A stretch of DNA of 64,000 nucleotides from Candidatus Kapaibacterium sp. (GTDB lineage: Bacteria; Bacteroidota; Ignavibacteria; Kapaibacteriales; UBA2268). The stretch covers positions 448,001 through 512,000 of the forward strand of contig OY761611.1 in the NCBI GenBank assembly GCA_963664875.1, written 5' to 3'. Position numbers and translations under genes: made by a program. Below the pieces are notes generated by a model. That model was not told the origin of the DNA, made no database searches, and saw only the letters and a list, made by a program, of their open reading frames with translations. Shown piece after piece: positions 23,703-35,777 of the stretch; the stretch's first letter is position 1, and every line of letters starts with the position of its first letter.

Positions 23703-23948
23703 TTGGATGATGTGATGACAACTTTATTAGACGCTCCCGACAATATTGTTCTAAAAATAAAAGAAATAATTGCCGGCGATACCGCTAAAATCAAACTTAG
23801 TAATCTGGGTTTGAATATCGGAGATAATGTAATTAAAATTAGAAGCAAAAAGTCAGGTCCCGTTTTATTACATAACGAATCTAATGCTATCTCGAAACTT
23901 GCCATTGGTAAAGGTTTAGCAGAAAAAATCGGTGTAGAGGAAGTATGA
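23703..23948 (+). CDS. feoA: FeoA
   Basis: KLSNLGLNIG, GPV, LAIGKGLAEKI; overlaps feoB start. Confidence 0.85.
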   Translation: MDDVMTTLLDAPDNIVLKIKEIIAGDTAKIKLSNLGLNIGDNVIKIRSKKSGPVLLHNESNAISKLAIGKGLAEKIGVEEV

Positions 23949-25858
23949 GAGATATAAAAACTATAGCACTCATCGGACAGCCAAATTCCGGCAAAAGTAC
24001 TATTTTCTCTGTTATGTCTGACATCAAGACTTCTGCATCAGGTTCAACTTATGAGCAAAAAAAGTCTTTAATAAATATTTTTGGTGAGAAGTTTAATCTT
24101 GTGGATTTGCCCGGGATTTACTCCTTAAATTCTTCTCAAAATTCTGAAGAGCTCACTTTAGATTACCTTCTAAAAGGGAAAGTAGATTTAATAATAAATG
24201 TTGTAGATGGTACTCTTCTTGCCAGGTCTTTAGAATTGACTGTTGAGCTTCTCGAATTAGGACTTCCTATGATTGTAGCAGTCAATATGGAAGATATATT
24301 TTCCAATTATGGTATCACAATAGATTATAAAAAATTACAAGAGATACTTAATGTCCCTGTAATTCCAACACAAGCTCTTTTTGGTAAAGGCATAAAAAAT
24401 CTTACTGAGCATTGTTATAAAAGAATAAAAGGTAAATCCATTGCTCCCGGTACGCTTGATTACACACATCATTTTGAAATGCATCTCCAAAAGTTGTACC
24501 CGGTAATAGAACCTTTGAAAGAAAAATACAACGCTAAGACACGTTTCTTCGCAATTAAAGCCATAGAAAACCCAAAGGTTTTGCCTCAGGACATCAGAGA
24601 GGCAGTGTCTGATATATCCTCCGGCATCAGACGAGAATTAGAAGAAGAGCATGGAAAGGATACATTTGAAACTGTTTCATACGAGAGGCACCATCTTGCA
24701 ATGAAAATGGCAGAAGATATTTCTGTTATTTCAAATCGGAGATCAAAACCTTTTATAGAAAAAATTGACAATTTGCTTTTACATCCAGTTTTTGGAAACT
24801 TTTTCCTTGTCATCTTTTTCTTTCTTTACTTCTTATCAATTTTTGTTGTTGGTGATTTTCTGGCAGGATTATTAGAATCACCTTTAGAAAATCTTGCAAC
24901 ATATTTTCAAGGTTTGAAGGAAGTGAATGAATTTGCGTGGTTTTCTGTCAATGGAGCCTATCAGGGGCTGATTGGTGTCGTTGGAATCGTATTACCTTAC
25001 TTTCTTCCTTTAGTCTTTCTAACTTCTTTATTTGAAGACACAGGCTATTTGTCCCGAATTGCATTTCTAATTGATGGCTTGATGCATAGAGTAGGTTTGC
25101 ATGGAAAATCTGTAGTATCTTTTATACTTGGGCTGGGTTGTGCTATCCCTGCTATTTATGCAACAAGGATGCTCGAAGACAAAAGAGACAGAGTAATAAG
25201 TGCTATGCTTATCCCATTTGTTCCGTGTTCTGCTAGAATAACAGTAATATTTGCTCTTGCGGCTGCTTTTACCGGACCAATATGGGCAATGGTAATCTTC
25301 CTATATATTTTACTTGTAATAGCGATTGTAGGTAAGGTACTGTCTAAATTTTTGTCTGAACCTACAGGAATGGTTTTAGAAATACCACGCCTAAGAAAAC
25401 CACTACTAAAATCTTCTGCAAAGTCAACCTGGTTAAAAACAAAAGATTTTATAAGAGAAGCTACTATATTTTTAATTGGCGGTGGTGTATTCCTTGGCTG
25501 GGTTGAGTATTTTGGAGTTGCACAGTTTTTAGATGCTGCTTTTGCTCCTATTCTACATGCAATTTTAGGACTACCTGAACAGTTAGGCTCAACTCTTATA
25601 TTTGGCTTTTGGAGAAAAGAATTGATTTTGGTTATGGCAAACCAAGCACTTAACGTATCTACACTTTCAGCTTTACCTCTTACTAATGCACAAGTGATAG
25701 TATTCGTAATTTTTGTTGCATTGTATTTTCCGTGCTTTACAACATTTGTTGTTATTGTTAAAGAATTCAGCTGGAAAATAGCCACTTATTCCGGTATTTT
25801 GGCACTTGCTATTGCCACTATCTCAGCTTTTTTGTTCAAAATAATACTTGGTGCCTAA
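23945..25858 (+). CDS. feoB: FeoB-family metal transporter
   Basis: GQPNSGKS, DLPGIYSL, NMED, EDTGYLSR, GLGC, PFVPCSAR, LYFPC. Confidence 0.94.
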   Translation: MRDIKTIALIGQPNSGKSTIFSVMSDIKTSASGSTYEQKKSLINIFGEKFNLVDLPGIYSLNSSQNSEELTLDYLLKGKVDLIINVVDGTLLARSLELTVELLELGLPMIVAVNMEDIFSNYGITIDYKKLQEILNVPVIPTQALFGKGIKNLTEHCYKRIKGKSIAPGTLDYTHHFEMHLQKLYPVIEPLKEKYNAKTRFFAIKAIENPKVLPQDIREAVSDISSGIRRELEEEHGKDTFETVSYERHHLAMKMAEDISVISNRRSKPFIEKIDNLLLHPVFGNFFLVIFFFLYFLSIFVVGDFLAGLLESPLENLATYFQGLKEVNEFAWFSVNGAYQGLIGVVGIVLPYFLPLVFLTSLFEDTGYLSRIAFLIDGLMHRVGLHGKSVVSFILGLGCAIPAIYATRMLEDKRDRVISAMLIPFVPCSARITVIFALAAAFTGPIWAMVIFLYILLVIAIVGKVLSKFLSEPTGMVLEIPRLRKPLLKSSAKSTWLKTKDFIREATIFLIGGGVFLGWVEYFGVAQFLDAAFAPILHAILGLPEQLGSTLIFGFWRKELILVMANQALNVSTLSALPLTNAQVIVFVIFVALYFPCFTTFVVIVKEFSWKIATYSGILALAIATISAFLFKIILGA

Positions 25859-25932
25859 AAAACATTTAGATAAGAATAAAATATTTCTTAGTTTATATAA
25901 AACATTAATGTACCACTTTTGATTTGTGAATT

Positions 25933-26577
25933 ATGCTAAGTCAAGCCGTACAAGATTATCTGAAGACAATATACAAGTTACAGGAAACGGGGCCTGTATC
26001 AACTACAAAGATTGCAAAAGAATTGAATATATCAGGTGCCTCCGTGACAGGAATGCTAAAACGATTAGCTTCTATGGGAATGGTAGATTATAATTCGTAC
26101 AAAGGTGTCAAACTAACATCTAACGGAGAAAAAATTGCTTTAGAGATTCTAAGGCATCACAGATTGTTAGAGCTTTATCTGAAAGAAATGCTTGGATTCT
26201 CTTTAGAAAAAGTCCACGACGAGGCATGCCGTTTAGAGCATCATATTTCACCTGAGTTTCTCGAAAAAATTGATGATTTACTTGGCAATCCACAATTTGA
26301 CCCACATGGGCATCCAATTCCTCAGCGAGATGGCAATCTTCCAAGTTTGCAAGAAAATGTCCTTCTAGAAATAGATCCCGGTAGAACAGTTACTATATCT
26401 CGTTTAGCCGATAACGATCCGGAAATGCTAGCCTATTTTGAAACGCAGGGGCTTGTTCCTTCAGTAGTGATTCAGGTAATGGAGAAAGCTCCATTCAACG
26501 GACCAATTACTATTAAATTGAACGGTCAAAATAAAATATTAGGCAACGAGGTTGCTAGAAATATATATGTGAAATAG
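25933..26577 (+). CDS. DtxR/MntR metal-dependent repressor with C-terminal FeoA-like domain
   Basis: QDYLKTIY, SVTGMLKRL, RHHRLLELYL, HDEACRLEH, DPHGHPIP. Confidence 0.94.
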   Translation: MLSQAVQDYLKTIYKLQETGPVSTTKIAKELNISGASVTGMLKRLASMGMVDYNSYKGVKLTSNGEKIALEILRHHRLLELYLKEMLGFSLEKVHDEACRLEHHISPEFLEKIDDLLGNPQFDPHGHPIPQRDGNLPSLQENVLLEIDPGRTVTISRLADNDPEMLAYFETQGLVPSVVIQVMEKAPFNGPITIKLNGQNKILGNEVARNIYVK

Positions 26578-30820: not shown

Positions 30821-31183
30821 ATGAAACAAATATTTAACATACTGTTTTCGATAATACTATTCGTCGCAACTTTGCTCTCGATGCATAATGAAGCTGTGAA
30901 TGGACATTATCATGTTTCAGAAGATGGAATTACATATTATCATGTGCATCCTTACGATCATCACGAAAATAGTGATTCTCCATTAAAAGACCATACACAT
31001 TCTAAAGTTGAATCAGTTATATATCTAAGCTATACACACCCTCTTTTTATTCTAAGTAGCATTTTTTGCTTCATAGTATATAGCTTATATAGGAAAATTG
31101 ATTTTAAATCTTCAAAAATCTTTGCTTTTTCACTGCAAGAATCCTTCGACAGTAGTGAGTTACGTGCTCCACCGGCTTTGTAA
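30821..31183 (+). CDS. His-rich leader protein ending in RAPP arrest-like motif
   Basis: N-terminal hydrophobic segment, 10 His (HYH, HVHPYDHH, HTH), second hydrophobic segment, C-terminal LRAPPAL*. Confidence 0.8.
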   Translation: MKQIFNILFSIILFVATLLSMHNEAVNGHYHVSEDGITYYHVHPYDHHENSDSPLKDHTHSKVESVIYLSYTHPLFILSSIFCFIVYSLYRKIDFKSSKIFAFSLQESFDSSELRAPPAL

Positions 31184-31293
31184 AACAAATCTATTAATGC
31201 CTCTAATTCTTTTCCAATAAATACAGCCTATTGTATTATTGGTTCATATTAGCACATACACTATAATTTTTATACTTAATAATGGGGATTACT

Positions 31294-32574
31294 ATGAAAT
31301 TAGTAAACTTTTTACTTATTACATTTATGATTTCTGCCAACTTACTACATGCAGAAACGGAAGAAGTTACAATAACTACTGGTGTAAGCTACCAAAATAC
31401 CGTTTGGTACTCATTGACAGGAGGAGTAGTCAAAGAAGCACCAAAAGATAACTGGGATTTAGCTTTCCAGACAGGACAAAACGGTGCAATTCATCTCAAC
31501 TGCCAAAAAGGCTATGAACTTTTTGAAATAGTAGATTCTGACGAGTTTTCTTGGGATGCTACTATAGATACTACTGACTTCAGAAACTCAAAGAATTTTG
31601 TTTCTTGGCTCAACTCGGAAGGATCTTGGAATGTTGGCGCATTTAATACCGGGAAAAACGGATTTGAGGACAATGGAGAATTCGGTTGGGGTGCTTATGA
31701 TTTGTCAGATCATGGGATAAAAGGCAATAAACTATTTATGCTTATAACACCCGATAAACAAGTAAAAAAGATATTTATATCTAAATTATTGAACAGGAAA
31801 TATGACTTCAAATATGCTGATTTAGACGGATCAAATGAAGTATATGCTACTGTTAATAAAAATGACCGACCTGATGTATCATTTATCTACTTCGACTTTG
31901 CAACTAATGCAATACTTACAGAAGCTAGAGAACCTAATAGTTCTGACTGGGATTTGGTTTTTGGAAAATACACAATAGCTTACCCAACAGGTGAAGGAAC
32001 ATTTATGCCTTATCCTGTTACAGGAATCAAACAAAATCAAACAGTTTTAGCTGTTCAATTAGATGATGTAGATGTAGATAATGTAGCTGAGCCTGCCGAT
32101 GAATTGTTTGAAGAAAATATTACAATAATAGGTTCAGACTGGAAAAAATATAACATGTCCACAGGTGTTTATGAAATCACACAAAACAGAGTTTACTTTT
32201 TAAAAGATGTTGCCGGCATATTATTCAAATTAGTTTTAAAAGATTTTTCCGGAAGCCAAGACGGAAAATATGTTTTCGATCAAACACGCATGGGCTCTTC
32301 GGTTAGCGAAAGTCTCTCAAACTTGAACTTAGCAATATATCCTAATGTGATTGAAAAAAATGAAACATTCAATGTAGTATTGAGTGATGAGATTCCACAA
32401 GAGTATAATCTTTCCATAGTAGATTTGGCAGGAAATAAAGTAATGTCTCAGATAGTAGAATCAGACTATTTGAAAACAGTCACTTTGAATAGCAGCACAC
32501 TTTCAAGTGGTGTTTACTTTATTACACTTTCAAATTCGACAGGGATTATATCTAATAAAATTATCGTGAGATAA
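31294..32574 (+). CDS. HmuY-like protein with T9SS (Por) C-terminal sorting domain (likely start ATG 31294)
   Basis: NWDLAF and DWDLVFGKY repeats, IGSDWKKY; CTD IYPN...SSGVYFITL...KIIVR. Confidence 0.8.
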   Translation: MKLVNFLLITFMISANLLHAETEEVTITTGVSYQNTVWYSLTGGVVKEAPKDNWDLAFQTGQNGAIHLNCQKGYELFEIVDSDEFSWDATIDTTDFRNSKNFVSWLNSEGSWNVGAFNTGKNGFEDNGEFGWGAYDLSDHGIKGNKLFMLITPDKQVKKIFISKLLNRKYDFKYADLDGSNEVYATVNKNDRPDVSFIYFDFATNAILTEAREPNSSDWDLVFGKYTIAYPTGEGTFMPYPVTGIKQNQTVLAVQLDDVDVDNVAEPADELFEENITIIGSDWKKYNMSTGVYEITQNRVYFLKDVAGILFKLVLKDFSGSQDGKYVFDQTRMGSSVSESLSNLNLAIYPNVIEKNETFNVVLSDEIPQEYNLSIVDLAGNKVMSQIVESDYLKTVTLNSSTLSSGVYFITLSNSTGIISNKIIVR

Positions 32575-32577
32575 AAA

Positions 32578-34776
32578 ATGCGATTTTTCACTATGACCTT
32601 TATTTTTATTTCATTGCTGGGCGCACTAAACGCGTCCGGCAGTGAAGATATTATCCAGATTATGGACAAAGAAACTAAAGAGCCTATACATTCTGCTACA
32701 ATAACGATAACAAGTAAAGAACAAAAAAAGATGATCAAGGCAGACAAGTATGGTAAATTTGTAAATCCTTTTCCATATCCCATATCAGTACAAATTACTT
32801 GTGTAGGATACTTAAGATTTTCTTACAAACTGAAATCAAATCCCGGTAAAATATATCTGGTACCTACAACTAAATACATGAATCCAATTGTTACCACGGG
32901 ACAGTTTACACCTCGTTCGACCCAGAAATCTGTTTATCCTGTCAAAGTAATTAGCAGTGAGACAATCAGCGAGCAGGCTGCCAATGATTTACGTGAACTA
33001 CTGAACACTGAATCAAATATCCGTATGTCGCAGGACGGTGTGTTAGGATCAAGTATGAGTATCAATGGTATTTCTGGAGAAAACATCAAGATTTTGATTG
33101 ATGGCGTACCTGTTATTGGTAGAATGGATGGGAATATAGACCTTTCTCAAATCAATCTGTCAAATATAGACAGAGTAGAAATAATTGAAGGTCCTATGTC
33201 TTCTGTTTACGGGTCAGACGCTTTGGGTGGAGTAATAAATCTTATATCTAAAGATCAAACAACTCCCGGGACAAAGATTAATGCTGAGACGTACTATGAG
33301 TCAGTAGGTAGAGTGAATGCTAACGCAGGTTTTAACTATTATGACGAAACTTATAAAACTGGACTCAATTTTGGTCGTAATTTCTTTAACGGATATTCCG
33401 AAAAAGATTATTTGAGAGCTGAAGAATGGTCACCTAAAGAGCAATATTTTGCAGACTTTAATGCTTCAATGAAAAAAGGAAATCACACGATTAAGTACCA
33501 AGCGAGCTATTTTGACGAATATATTCTCAAAAGATACGAACCTTATGATTTTTACAAAGAAAGAGCATTTGATGACAGGTTTTATACCGACCGATTTACA
33601 AATAGTCTATTTTACAATGCGAAAGTAAATGAGAATACTTACTTAACAGCTACTGCAAATTATTCTTTTTATCAAAGAATTCGTAATAAGTATTCAATAA
33701 ACAGAACAACCTTAGACGAAATTCTAGTTACTGACAAGGGCTCCCAGGATACTTCTAAGTTCAATACATATATATTTCGCTCTACTTTGAGTAGTGATAA
33801 ATTGTCTGATTATCTTGCTTATCAAATTGGTTTGGATTTTCAGTATGACGATGCTACGGGGCAAAAGATAGAAGGAAATCGACAAGATATTGGAGATTAT
33901 GCAGTTTTTGGCGGTGTTCAGATTTCTCCATTAGATGAAATTACAGTACAACCAACATTCCGATATAGTCACAATACCAAATACGATTCTCCCCTTACAT
34001 ATACTTTCAATCTGAAATACAATATCATCAACAACTTGATTTTCAGAGCAACATACGGCAAAGGATTTAGAGCTCCGAGTTTGAAAGAGTTATATTTAGA
34101 TTTTGTTGATTCTAATCACGAAATTACAGGCAATACAGACTTAGATGCAGAGGAATCAAAATCAGTAAATGCAGGATTTGAGTACAATGCTTTCTTTTCA
34201 GGTAGATTATTAAAAGTTGAGCCTCGTTATTTCTTTAATCAGATTGATAATAAAATCGAACTGGTAAAGGTTGATCCTAATTCAGAAAGACGAATGAATC
34301 AAAACATTTCAAGATTCAAATCAACAGGTGCTTCTTTGAATGTATCTTTCTTTTCTCACAACTATAATGTAAAAATATCATATAATTATACCGGAAGATA
34401 CAATCAATTATCAGAAACAAGATCTGATGCCGGTGAGTATTCGTTCTCTAATGATTTGCAGGCAAATTTTTCATGGCTGATACCATATTGCGGCACAAGA
34501 ATGTCAATATTTTATAAATACACAGGTAAACTTCCTTATATAGAACTCGTTGATAATACTATCCAAGAGTTATATATAGAAGATTTTCACACTCTGGATT
34601 TGACATTCAATCGCAAATTTTTTGATTTATTCATTCTAAATTTTGGTGCAAAAAATATATTTGATGTTAAATCAATAGCAAGTGGAATGGCATCAGGCGG
34701 AGCACATTCCGGCGGTGGAAATGCAATGATAAATTATGGTAGAACATATTTTGTTTCTATAGGAGTAGATTACTAA
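32578..34776 (+). CDS. TonB-dependent receptor, heme/HmuR-like
   Basis: Plug ILIDGVP, RVEIIEGPMSSVYGSDALGGVINLI; FRAP...H...GNTDL loop; terminal GRTYFVSIGVDY. Confidence 0.92.
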   Translation: MRFFTMTFIFISLLGALNASGSEDIIQIMDKETKEPIHSATITITSKEQKKMIKADKYGKFVNPFPYPISVQITCVGYLRFSYKLKSNPGKIYLVPTTKYMNPIVTTGQFTPRSTQKSVYPVKVISSETISEQAANDLRELLNTESNIRMSQDGVLGSSMSINGISGENIKILIDGVPVIGRMDGNIDLSQINLSNIDRVEIIEGPMSSVYGSDALGGVINLISKDQTTPGTKINAETYYESVGRVNANAGFNYYDETYKTGLNFGRNFFNGYSEKDYLRAEEWSPKEQYFADFNASMKKGNHTIKYQASYFDEYILKRYEPYDFYKERAFDDRFYTDRFTNSLFYNAKVNENTYLTATANYSFYQRIRNKYSINRTTLDEILVTDKGSQDTSKFNTYIFRSTLSSDKLSDYLAYQIGLDFQYDDATGQKIEGNRQDIGDYAVFGGVQISPLDEITVQPTFRYSHNTKYDSPLTYTFNLKYNIINNLIFRATYGKGFRAPSLKELYLDFVDSNHEITGNTDLDAEESKSVNAGFEYNAFFSGRLLKVEPRYFFNQIDNKIELVKVDPNSERRMNQNISRFKSTGASLNVSFFSHNYNVKISYNYTGRYNQLSETRSDAGEYSFSNDLQANFSWLIPYCGTRMSIFYKYTGKLPYIELVDNTIQELYIEDFHTLDLTFNRKFFDLFILNFGAKNIFDVKSIASGMASGGAHSGGGNAMINYGRTYFVSIGVDY

Positions 34777-35777
34777 TGAAAATAATATACATATTTATTG
34801 TTTCGATTATTTTTACTGCTTGTATCAAAGAAGAAACTCCTGTTGCGGCAGTGGAAAGAGCCTATACAGAGACAATTGCTTTGGGTGAGAACTATGCGGT
34901 ACAAGTTTATTATGACTTAGAAAACAAGAAAATTGCTGCATATAACGACTTTGAAATATGGGATTTAGCTATTAATTCAAATACTGATATGAATACAATT
35001 GTTCTGAATACTGCGAAAAATATGCGAATATTTCCGTTGCCGGGCAAAACATTCGATGAGGTCAGTCTATCTGATTTCAAAGCTGTTAACGAAGAAGATT
35101 GGCTGTATGATGCCCCCAGTGGTAATCAAGATACAACTGCCTTCGGAGTTTGGTGGCAAATAATAGATAATCAAATCGTTCCCAAAGATATTACCTATCT
35201 TCTGGATAGAGGAAAAGATTCCAAAGGTGATAAAATAGGCTCATATAAGCTTAAGATTGTTAGTGCTGACAAAGAATCTATTAGTTTTCGTTTCCAAAAT
35301 CTCAGAGCTGATGAAATTATAGATATTACAGTCATAAAAGACTCGAAAACAAACTTCAGTATGTTATCTATAGATTCTAAAGAACAAATTAGCATAGAAC
35401 CAAATAAAGAAGACTGGGATATTTTATTTACCAAACATACTGAGTTGCTTTTTACTTCCGAAGGTGATGCAATGTGGTATGGTGTAACCAGTATTTTATT
35501 AAATCCATACAATTGCACTGCAGCTTTCAATACAGATTCTACTTACAATCTAATTACCTTAGATTCAATTCCAAATTATACTTTTTCGTCTGATAGGAAC
35601 ACGATAGGTCATGATTGGAAATATTATGATTTAGATGCCGGAGTATATCTGATGAGGTATCGTAATACTTATCTGATAAAATCTAGAAATGATTACTATT
35701 TCAAGCTAAGATTTACAAGTTTTACAAATGCTTCCGGTGAAAAAGGTTATCCTGAGTTTGAATTTGAAGGACTATAG
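34776..35777 (+). CDS. HmuY-family lipoprotein
   Basis: Lipobox FTAC; WDLAI, DWDILFTK, IGHDWKYY, YFKLRFTSF..GEKGYPEFEF. Confidence 0.85.
   Translation: MKIIYIFIVSIIFTACIKEETPVAAVERAYTETIALGENYAVQVYYDLENKKIAAYNDFEIWDLAINSNTDMNTIVLNTAKNMRIFPLPGKTFDEVSLSDFKAVNEEDWLYDAPSGNQDTTAFGVWWQIIDNQIVPKDITYLLDRGKDSKGDKIGSYKLKIVSADKESISFRFQNLRADEIIDITVIKDSKTNFSMLSIDSKEQISIEPNKEDWDILFTKHTELLFTSEGDAMWYGVTSILLNPYNCTAAFNTDSTYNLITLDSIPNYTFSSDRNTIGHDWKYYDLDAGVYLMRYRNTYLIKSRNDYYFKLRFTSFTNASGEKGYPEFEFEGL

Follow-up and report, generated by a model that had tools for sequence, protein, structure and literature searches.

A histidine-rich candidate arrest leader upstream of Bacteroidota TonB-dependent receptors as a putative nascent-chain metal sensor

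Results and discussion

A small His-rich ORF ending in RAPP precedes a HmuY and TonB-dependent receptor operon

The DNA analyzed here, referred to as the window, is a stretch of 64,000 nucleotides from the genome of Candidatus Kapaibacterium sp. (GenBank assembly GCA_963664875.1, contig OY761611.1, positions 448,001 to 512,000, forward strand). Within this window, an open reading frame (ORF) for a 120-residue His-rich protein lies upstream of genes that encode a HmuY-family protein with a type IX secretion system (T9SS) C-terminal sorting domain (HmuY-CTD), a TonB-dependent receptor, and a HmuY-family lipoprotein. A prediction made from the sequence alone had described the ORF as a leader that might stall its own ribosome at a C-terminal RAPP motif and switch a heme-uptake operon in response to heme or a metal. 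Comparison with homologs places this leader in a family in which three HxH motifs stand at a nearly constant distance from a terminal R[AG]PP, and points to an arrest leader whose ligand is more probably a divalent metal than heme. The features of the locus are collected in Table 1.

Table 1. Features of the leader ORF, the intergenic region, and the downstream genes (nucleotide positions are those of the window)
Feature	Position	Strand	Description
Leader ORF	30821..31183	+	120 aa; C-terminal ...SSELRAPPAL, then stop
N-terminal signal-anchor/TM1 helix	residues 1-27, 30821..30901	+	Lys, then hydrophobic run; AF2 helix 2-27, pLDDT 87-91
Predicted periplasmic His domain	residues 28-70, 30902..31030	+	three HxH motifs, E64
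HxH1	residues 29/31, 30905-30913	+	invariant His in family alignment
HxHP (second HxH)	residues 41-44, 30941-30952	+	invariant His; P44 in 140/143
HxH3	residues 58/60, 30992-31000	+	H60 in 143/143, H58 in 142/143
Second hydrophobic helix, TM2	residues 72-97, 31034..31111	+	AF2 helix; basic flank R91, K92, K96, K99
Linker	residues 98-114, 31112..31162	+	length conserved, sequence unconserved; AF2: no secondary structure, pLDDT ≈68
RAPP codons CGT GCT CCA CCG, R115-A-P-P118	31163-31174	+	predicted stall site
Two-residue tail AL and stop codon	31175..31183	+	
Intergenic region, 110 nt	31184..31293	+	between leader stop and HmuY-CTD ATG
Hairpin	31214-31242	+	in intergenic region
GGGGA Shine-Dalgarno-like site	31284-31288	+	GGAG-like equivalents and ATG spacing conserved in L038-L040
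HmuY-family protein with T9SS C-terminal sorting domain (HmuY-CTD)	31294..32574	+	ORF open from 31282
TonB-dependent receptor, 732 aa	32578..34776	+	Plug and TonB barrel (Pfam)
HmuY-family lipoprotein, 333 aa	34776..35777	+	HmuY 59.6 bits, cut-off 27; start overlaps receptor stop

The ORF and its RAPP codons are as originally predicted, and so is the order of its parts: an N-terminal signal or transmembrane (TM) segment, 10 histidines (H22, H29, H31, H41, H43, H47, H48, H58, H60, and H73), a second hydrophobic helix, 24 residues (R91 to L114), and RAPP just before the stop codon. The two hydrophobic stretches span residues 5-20 and approximately 74-90. The sole cysteine, C83, is within helix 2, and the loop has none. 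Upstream of the ORF we find no GGAG-like Shine-Dalgarno site like that of the HmuY-CTD gene. An AlphaFold2 (AF2) model built on a 118-sequence family alignment has a mean predicted local distance difference test (pLDDT) score of 83.3 and orders the chain as a helix (residues 2-27), a beta-hairpin (28-32/38-42), two further helices (62-70 and 72-97), and an unstructured tail that carries the RAPP motif. The HxH motifs at 29/31 and 41/43 are located one on each strand of the hairpin, and the secondary structure leads us to infer that these four histidines would share one face if the strands pair in register 28:42. A Foldseek comparison of the model with the Protein Data Bank found no solved relative (best E = 2.5).

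The first downstream gene likely starts at ATG 31294; both this codon and the GGAG-like site preceding it are common to three relatives, which puts the start 110 nt after the leader stop, in agreement with the predicted distance. Pfam also agrees with the predicted order of HmuY-CTD, receptor, and lipoprotein HmuY. HmuY-CTD itself scores 40.9 bits for HmuY and 33.6 bits for Por_Secre_tail (both cut-offs 27) and matches NCBIfam TIGR04183.

The leader represents a widespread family with invariant histidines

A word-index search returned five close homologs (61-100% identity), every one of which ends in LR[AG]PP. With phmmer, a search of 1.84 billion protein representatives at E <= 1e-3 gave 259 cluster representatives, nearly all of ≈120 aa. 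The family counts reported here cover 153 proteins examined, with 150 of the 259 phmmer matches listed, and leave out P0001 (the window product read from M21) and P0042 (an unrelated 297-aa repeat protein); residue conservation was counted over the 143 members with lengths of 95-135 aa, aligned with MAFFT. In this alignment, H29, H31, H41, H43, and H60 are present in every protein and H58 in all but one. Other well-conserved positions of the loop are P44 (140/143), N23 and G36 (137/143 each), P54 (124/143), and E64 (104/143). Toward the C terminus, R115 is Arg in 130 of the 143 proteins (Lys in 6 and His in 4), position 116 is Ala in 88, Gly in 39, and Ser in 13, and P117 and P118 are each Pro in 141. 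The N-terminal region is hydrophobic in nearly all aligned members, and the stretch between helix 2 and the Arg is unconserved in sequence.

The original prediction had proposed examining homologs for joint conservation of the His motifs and the terminal R[AG]PP, and the two do occur together; a RAPP not conserved in homologs, which it had named as a refutation, is not what is observed. A regular expression for the triple HxH core matches 151 of the 153 proteins, and 147 of these 151 have [RKH][AGSP]PP at the C-terminal end, as RAPP (86), RGPP (41), RSPP (9), HAPP (4), KSPP (3), KAPP (3), or RPPP (1). Apart from this motif, nothing in the C-terminal half is conserved among the members examined. 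In 146 of the 147, the Arg follows the last His of HxH3 at a distance of 50-56 residues (mode 54, in 72 proteins), and 1-9 residues follow the PP in 140. A hydrophobic 17-mer corresponding to helix 2 is present in 138 of the 147; the median distance from its end to the second Pro is 28 residues. This fixed 54-residue spacing over unconserved sequence suggests a ruler that would be measured against the ribosome and translocon. At the codon level, the motif differs among relatives by synonymous changes (CGT/AGG/CGC, GCT/GGA/GCC/GGC, CCA/CCT, and CCG/CCC/CCT); the Arg, Ala/Gly, and Pro codons thus vary in a way that indicates selection on the peptide rather than on an RNA motif.

No Pfam or NCBIfam model matches the window leader, and the commonest matches among the 118 members scanned are at chance level. 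In the ESM Atlas, the leader retrieves only "hypothetical protein" clusters from Bacteroidota. Judged by these comparisons, the leader is a member of a widespread, unnamed Bacteroidota family.

Leaders of this family stand before transport genes

Matches to the leader profile occur in 17 of 401 genomes of a phylum sample and in 15 of 401 of a class sample, which is a patchy distribution. A first search yielded 16 loci, namely those of 15 other genomes and a paralog in the window's own genome, with L020 (G271, E = 2.4e-4) left out on account of internal stops. The next gene encodes a TonB-dependent receptor of 735-801 aa in 15 of these 16 loci, and an efflux pump operon follows in the other (L029). 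A second search added 10 new loci, 2 of which (L044 and L045) are cut by contig ends; the receptor is the next gene in all of the remaining 8. Three close relatives have the exact layout of the window and are syntenic with it. Across 28 loci, the window included, the leader is followed by a TonB-dependent receptor in 23, by HmuY-CTD and then a receptor in 4, and by the efflux pump operon in 1, consistent with the predicted position upstream of TonB receptors. A transport gene follows on the same strand in all 28, and the gap between the leader and the next gene is 38-214 nt in the 25 intergenic regions (IGRs) measured.

The L029 operon encodes a membrane-fusion protein, a CusA/CzcA-family resistance-nodulation-division (RND) pump (TIGR00914, 935.8 bits versus a 701-bit cut-off), and an outer-membrane factor, in that order. 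Transmembrane helix 4 of this pump contains DFG..DGA..VE, which we take to be a signature of divalent-cation (Czc/Cnr-type) pumps, and on that assumption we label it Czc-like.

The receptors adjacent to leaders in other genomes, together with that of the window genome's own paralog, score 400-980 bits pairwise, whereas the window receptor reaches at most 84 bits against them. We tried to name the leader-linked receptors by NCBIfam subfamily and rejected the attempt, since all matches fall below the cut-offs. HmuY proteins accompany the leader in the window clade alone (4 of the 28 loci). Because the window receptor belongs to another clade and HmuY is confined to the window clade, the leader in the window seems to have been recruited secondarily to another, HmuY-associated receptor system. 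Beyond the receptor, the genes of the other loci share no theme: a thioredoxin-like protein is encoded in two, and a globin, TPR, rhomboid, FmdE, an oxidoreductase, a prolyl oligopeptidase, and IMPDH occur once or twice each.

R[AG]PP in the window's own genome is nearly confined to such leaders

A crude proteome of the window's own genome, with 3295 ORFs and 1.16 M aa in total, contains four instances of R[AG]PP; its composition would predict 5.9. Three of these occurrences lie 2-4 residues from the C terminus of small, exported, His/Cys-rich ORFs that stand directly upstream of outer-membrane or efflux transport genes, and the fourth is within a 60-aa ORF of dubious reality. Besides the window leader, the three include the paralog at C1:813861-814190 (L037:3062-3391), which is 31% identical, ends in HLRAPPTAC, and is located 121 nt upstream of a gene for a 797-aa TonB-dependent receptor of the clade usual for the leader family. 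A sibling receptor gene of the same genome, C1:850490-852559, appears split (689 + 101 aa).

The third leader, C1:2344212-2344610 (L041:1212-1607), is a Cys/His-rich protein of 132 aa with RGPP and a signal-like N terminus. It is encoded ≈330 nt upstream of genes for a His-rich membrane-fusion protein, a CusA/CzcA-family RND pump (828.8 bits versus the 701-bit cut-off), and an outer-membrane factor. This ORF is probably another arrest-type metal leader, here for efflux; the label Cus-like that we give to its pump presumes the RND transmembrane-helix-4 signatures.

The leader shares features with known arrest peptides and differs in its putative metal ligands

The leader has the features of the arrest-peptide class, namely a near-C-terminal R-A/G-P-P core, an N-terminal hydrophobic segment, and a same-strand position before a transport gene. 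Among its closest parallels is CruR (Bp2923, DUF2946) of Bordetella pertussis, encoded in cruR-bfrG(crtA)-bp2921. As reported, CruR is a small exported protein with RAPP three residues from its C-terminal end, much as RAPP is nearly terminal in the window leader; its metal-ligand motif likewise stands at a fixed distance from RAPP, and its gene, like those of the leader family, is directly upstream of a TonB-dependent receptor gene with a long intergenic region (PMC9426467). RAPP is required there for downstream expression (PMC9426467). The two differ in their ligands and build: CruR uses CxxC for copper at 45 residues and has no second hydrophobic helix, whereas the window family has three HxH, no Cys in the loop, a spacing of 54 residues, and a second helix. 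CruR also occurs mostly in Proteobacteria and at high-GC loci, with a Rho mechanism in which stalling reportedly protects from Rho. The CxxC-RAPP spacing in DUF2946 is given as 45 +/- 1-2, and changes of a few residues have been probed in CruR (PMC9426467); the 50-56 residues between ligand motif and RAPP in the leader family are analogous to this fixed spacing. We considered membership of DUF2946 and rejected it, as the window protein has no PF11162 match and no CxxC, and 3 of 118 family members match only at E >= 0.11. In the phylum sample, 7 of 301 genomes contain PF11162, four of them with matches over the cut-off, and the window's own genome has none.

CutF, the DUF2946 leader of cutFOG in Rhodobacter capsulatus, is described as a transmembrane metal sensor that acts by stalling (10.1101/2025.02.05.636593), much as we propose for the window leader. 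It differs from this proposal in sensing copper through Cys, in an EF-P-dependent PPP-repeat stall motif, in controlling a multicopper oxidase rather than an uptake receptor, and in that metal induces rather than represses (10.1101/2025.02.05.636593). Stalling is reported to melt a stem-loop over the ribosome-binding site (10.1101/2025.02.05.636593).

A proteome-wide survey by Fujiwara, Chiba, and colleagues (EMBO J, December 2025) reports that RAPP/RGPP upstream ORFs (uORFs) are enriched ahead of TonB-dependent receptors in Gram-negative phyla and that nearly all have signal sequences (PMC12992588). Those described, including SLIV_16130 and SLIV_18480 of S. lividans, resemble the leader family in being small, in having a localization signal, and in carrying RAPP/RGPP near the C terminus, and some have conserved His/Cys predicted to bind metal (PMC12992588). 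The survey defines a class by motif and neighbor rather than the leader family itself; its main text describes no triple-HxH two-helix Bacteroidota family, fixed spacing, or second helix, and its supplements may list members (PMC12992588). Our literature search found no paper on a His-based two-helix RAPP leader family. The novelty claimed in the original prediction therefore divides: no characterized leader of that kind was found, but RAPP/RGPP uORFs before TonB receptors are already in print (PMC12992588). This suggests that the family is new within a published class.

The arrest peptides ApdA, ApdP, and the RQH group share with the leader family an R-A/G-P-P core, a variable upstream region, and an N-terminal export signal, and RQH members from Bacteroidales and Flavobacteriales stall in vitro (PMC10987492). 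All of these, like MifM, VemP, and SecM, differ from the leader family in that they precede secA, secDF, or yidC, monitor the export machinery, and lack a conserved metal-ligand cluster. For MifM, VemP, and SecM, release of arrest by pulling force is an established logic.

A proposed mechanism of nascent-chain metal sensing

With slightly better than even confidence, we propose that the protein is an arrest leader of the RAPP type whose His cluster detects a divalent metal in the periplasm, and that it works like CruR and CutF but is built differently. The arrest-leader part of this interpretation appears well supported by the comparative evidence. On RAPP/RGPP motifs, the ribosome is reported to stall when the third codon occupies the P site and the fourth the A site, and these motifs tolerate small residues at position 2 and resist EF-P (PMC12992588). 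RGPP is described as at least as strong as RAPP and RSPP as partially permissive, and HAPP, RSPP, and RAPS are found in uORF families (PMC12992588, PMC10987492). The substitutions seen in the leader family are variants reported as arrest-competent or arrest-associated, which lends support to the arrest reading.

In the mechanism we envisage, the N-terminal helix would target the nascent chain to the Sec translocon, and the 45-residue loop with its three invariant HxH motifs would be moved to the periplasmic side. On reaching R115-A-P-P118, the ribosome would stall, the codons for Pro117 and Pro118 occupying its P and A sites, respectively. At this point H60 would be 57 residues from the peptidyl-transferase center, and 27-43 residues would separate that center from the core of helix 2. 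Because the ribosome exit tunnel holds ≈30-40 residues, these distances would put the His loop outside both ribosome and translocon, facing the periplasm once helix 1 has inserted as a hairpin, and leave helix 2 just emerging from the tunnel. The spacing of His cluster, helix 2, and RAPP accordingly fits the co-translational sensor first predicted; the 24-28-residue spacer emphasized there does place helix 2 at the tunnel exit, but it is not what exports the His cluster, whose distance from the stall is 57-88 residues. Occupancy of this cluster by metal could then alter the tension on the chain, by way of loop folding, helix 2 insertion, or both, and the altered force would set the dwell time of the stalled ribosome. 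Stalled or released, this ribosome would stand 10-20 nt before the stop codon and set expression of the downstream operon. The RNA step could be either the hiding or exposure of the intergenic RNA to Rho, as in CruR, or a change in pairing of the ribosome-binding site, as in CutF. The ligand is most likely a divalent metal (Zn, Ni, Co, Cu(II), or Fe(II)), and the import cargo in the window clade may be a metal chelate or a tetrapyrrole.

The intergenic RNA gives a few hints of such a step. The window IGR folds better than its shuffles (z = -2.03, 100 shuffles), and its C>G skew, a hint of Rho, is at the 95th percentile of 556 co-directional IGRs; the skew is unremarkable for the IGRs of the own-genome paralog and the third leader. 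Across the 25 IGRs, the mean z against shuffles is -1.1, and 8 are below -2.

Evidence against the mechanism and alternative explanations

Several observations weigh against the proposed mechanism. Most E. coli and B. subtilis proteins with RAPP-like motifs are reported not to stall (PMC10987492). Four of the 151 core-bearing proteins lack the motif, two of them being truncated; the second Pro or the Arg is replaced in further loci (RAPS in L046, L049, and L050; NAPP in L047); and in L024 the ORF overlaps the receptor gene, its RASP standing 33 residues before the end. Helix 2 is not clearly hydrophobic in 9 of the 147 motif-bearing members and therefore cannot be essential to the mechanism everywhere. 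The sibling receptor in the window's own genome has no leader, and the high AF2 confidence is equally expected of a stable, functional two-helix membrane protein. On the RNA side, 13 of the 25 IGRs have z > -1, and short IGRs (38-65 nt) are mostly unstructured, with 5 of 7 at z > -0.5 and one (42 nt) at -2.47. The fold of 31120-31320 in the window is not unusual (z = -0.84), the hairpin begins ≈30 nt past the edge of a ribosome stalled at RAPP, and the window IGR is poorly conserved among the four syntenic loci apart from the GGAG-like site and ATG; for these four IGRs, on a poor alignment, RNAalifold gave no consensus pairs. A promoter and terminator scan of this IGR found no intrinsic terminator on the + strand, and promoter-like matches were no commoner than in shuffles. 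Given the ordinary fold, the lack of consensus pairs and terminator, and the mixed folds per locus, an RBS (ribosome-binding site)-sequestering or attenuator structure in the window was considered and set aside.

The heme link of the original prediction, according to which the His cluster would respond to heme or heme iron and a Hmu-type uptake operon would be under the leader's control, draws on the local context. On either side of the receptor gene is one for a HmuY-family protein that scores above the Pfam cut-off, a layout kept in the three relatives, and the window-clade leaders have extra His, 10 here versus ≈7 typical of the family. In addition, genes for the 637-aa FeoB and for a 214-aa fusion of a DtxR-family iron-dependent repressor with FeoA are found at 23945-26577 (+), 4-7 kb upstream of the leader; two of the syntenic relatives have this pair close to the locus as well, in inverted orientation. 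The link does not extend to the other 24 of the 28 loci, which have no HmuY, and the six invariant His predate the HmuY association. The HmuY proteins are very remote from solved heme-binding homologs, the lipoprotein aligning over the C-terminal strand only (E = 0.076 for 6eu8, and 0.21). The receptor has BtuB and CirA as its best relatives and is below every NCBIfam subfamily cut-off: BtuB, also its best solved relative (E = 3e-21), gives 136 versus 600 bits, and the heme-receptor models give 104-107 bits versus cut-offs of 317-324. No hmuSTUV-like genes follow the lipoprotein gene; the next gene is Dtd (D-Tyr-tRNA deacylase), and convergent genes come after it. Moreover, heme would need one or two axial ligands, not six invariant His. 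We consider heme sensing quite unlikely, and free metal the likelier ligand because the usual receptor partner is of another clade and one member heads a CzcA-type cation efflux pump.

Alternatively, the product could be a stable small inner-membrane metal-binding protein, such as a metallochaperone or a receptor/TonB accessory, in which R[AG]PP is a protein motif or merely slows translation without regulation. The confident AF2 two-helix hairpin with its structured loop is as such a protein would have it, the tight genetic link to one receptor clade would also suit a functional partner, and CruR-type leaders are mostly secreted and have no second helix. Against this stands the region between helix 2 and the motif, whose fixed length and unconserved sequence are those of a ribosome/translocon spacer and not of a binding tail. 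The permitted motif variants match those reported to be arrest-competent. RAPP and RGPP are, moreover, the most avoided tetrapeptides in bacterial proteomes (PMC12992588), and the window's own genome has them almost only in such leaders. The same type of leader before an efflux pump also fits a sensor better than a receptor-specific accessory, and we regard a stable protein as unlikely. An arrest leader that needs no ligand, its stall being released by insertion of helix 2 as a monitor of Sec/YidC capacity or serving to hold the mRNA at the membrane, would agree with the median of 28 residues between helix 2 and the stall, about the distance at which inserting helices reportedly pull on arrest peptides in force-profile work from the von Heijne laboratory. 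All downstream products are exported, and known monitoring substrates such as MifM work in this way. An insertion monitor would leave the six invariant His unexplained, along with N23, G36, P44, P54, and E64 of the exported loop, and it would have no role for helix 2 in the nine members without a clear one. The downstream genes are not Sec or YidC components either; in the window they encode HmuY, the TonB-dependent receptor, and HmuY. Such a ligand-free leader is, in our judgment, improbable. The chance that the ORF is spurious, or miscalled with its true start at M21 and hence without the N-terminal helix, is close to nil. Database entries of the closest homologs do begin at M21 (100-103 aa long), the start chosen by several gene callers, but the upstream hydrophobic segment is kept in relatives with TTG starts and in nearly all of the 143 aligned members, and the 259 representatives have residues under clear purifying selection; we rejected both forms of this explanation on these grounds.

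A broader form of the metal-sensing proposal is tentative, and we hold it at somewhat below even confidence. Bacteroidota would possess a family of transmembrane nascent-chain metal sensors independent of the Cys-based DUF2946, in which a hairpin of four to six His stands ≈54 residues from R[AG]PP and helix 2, ≈28 residues off, turns occupancy into force. This module would have been placed before uptake receptors (metal-repressed), a CzcA-type efflux pump (metal-induced), and, in the window clade, the hemophore-like HmuY system. In that case, the downstream RNA alone would decide which of two opposite regulatory signs a single leader design gives.

Implications

Little is understood of metal homeostasis in Bacteroidota, whose TonB-dependent receptors often have no classical regulator encoded beside them. 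To our knowledge, the Cys- and copper-based CruR and CutF are so far the only metal-sensing arrest leaders that have been studied experimentally. If the proposed mechanism is true, the family would add a second sensor chemistry, that is, His-based regulation by nascent-chain arrest. It would also provide a natural force sensor, with a membrane helix at the tunnel exit during the stall, and would improve the annotation of hundreds of 120-aa genes now labeled "hypothetical" and of the receptors under their control. The 2025 EMBO J paper (PMC12992588) raises the questions of what modulates arrest and by what route it acts on the downstream gene. With its six invariant His, its constant 54-residue spacer, and partners whose functions, uptake and efflux, are opposite, the family would make both steps testable, and the RAPS, NAPP, and RASP members would be useful natural variants for probing the need for a stall.

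Distant relatives and variant loci

The nearest named cluster in the ESM Atlas is DUF6769 (PF20558), an uncharacterized Bacteroidota family, at a score of 0.93 that serves as a lead only. The window protein does not match DUF6769, 3 of 118 family members match it weakly, and the third leader of the window's own genome reaches 21.7 bits, below the 27-bit cut-off. We found no paper on the function of DUF6769.

Proteins distantly related to the leader family are encoded at two loci, L035 (G307) and L036 (G239). They combine His and Cys in the pattern HxYEH ... C.H ... THQH ... C..C and carry RAPP or RGPP at the C terminus. Their genes stand upstream of that for a different type of receptor, which in L035 has weak matches to copper-receptor and ZnuD models, and each locus has a prolyl oligopeptidase gene further downstream. 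These relatives suggest a wider superfamily with exchangeable ligand chemistry.

In L033 (G395), a terminator-like hairpin with a GC-rich 9-bp stem and a T run begins 8 nt after the RGPPAC stop and precedes the receptor gene, in an IGR with a fold z of -3.9. This locus is possibly an attenuator version of the same leader design.

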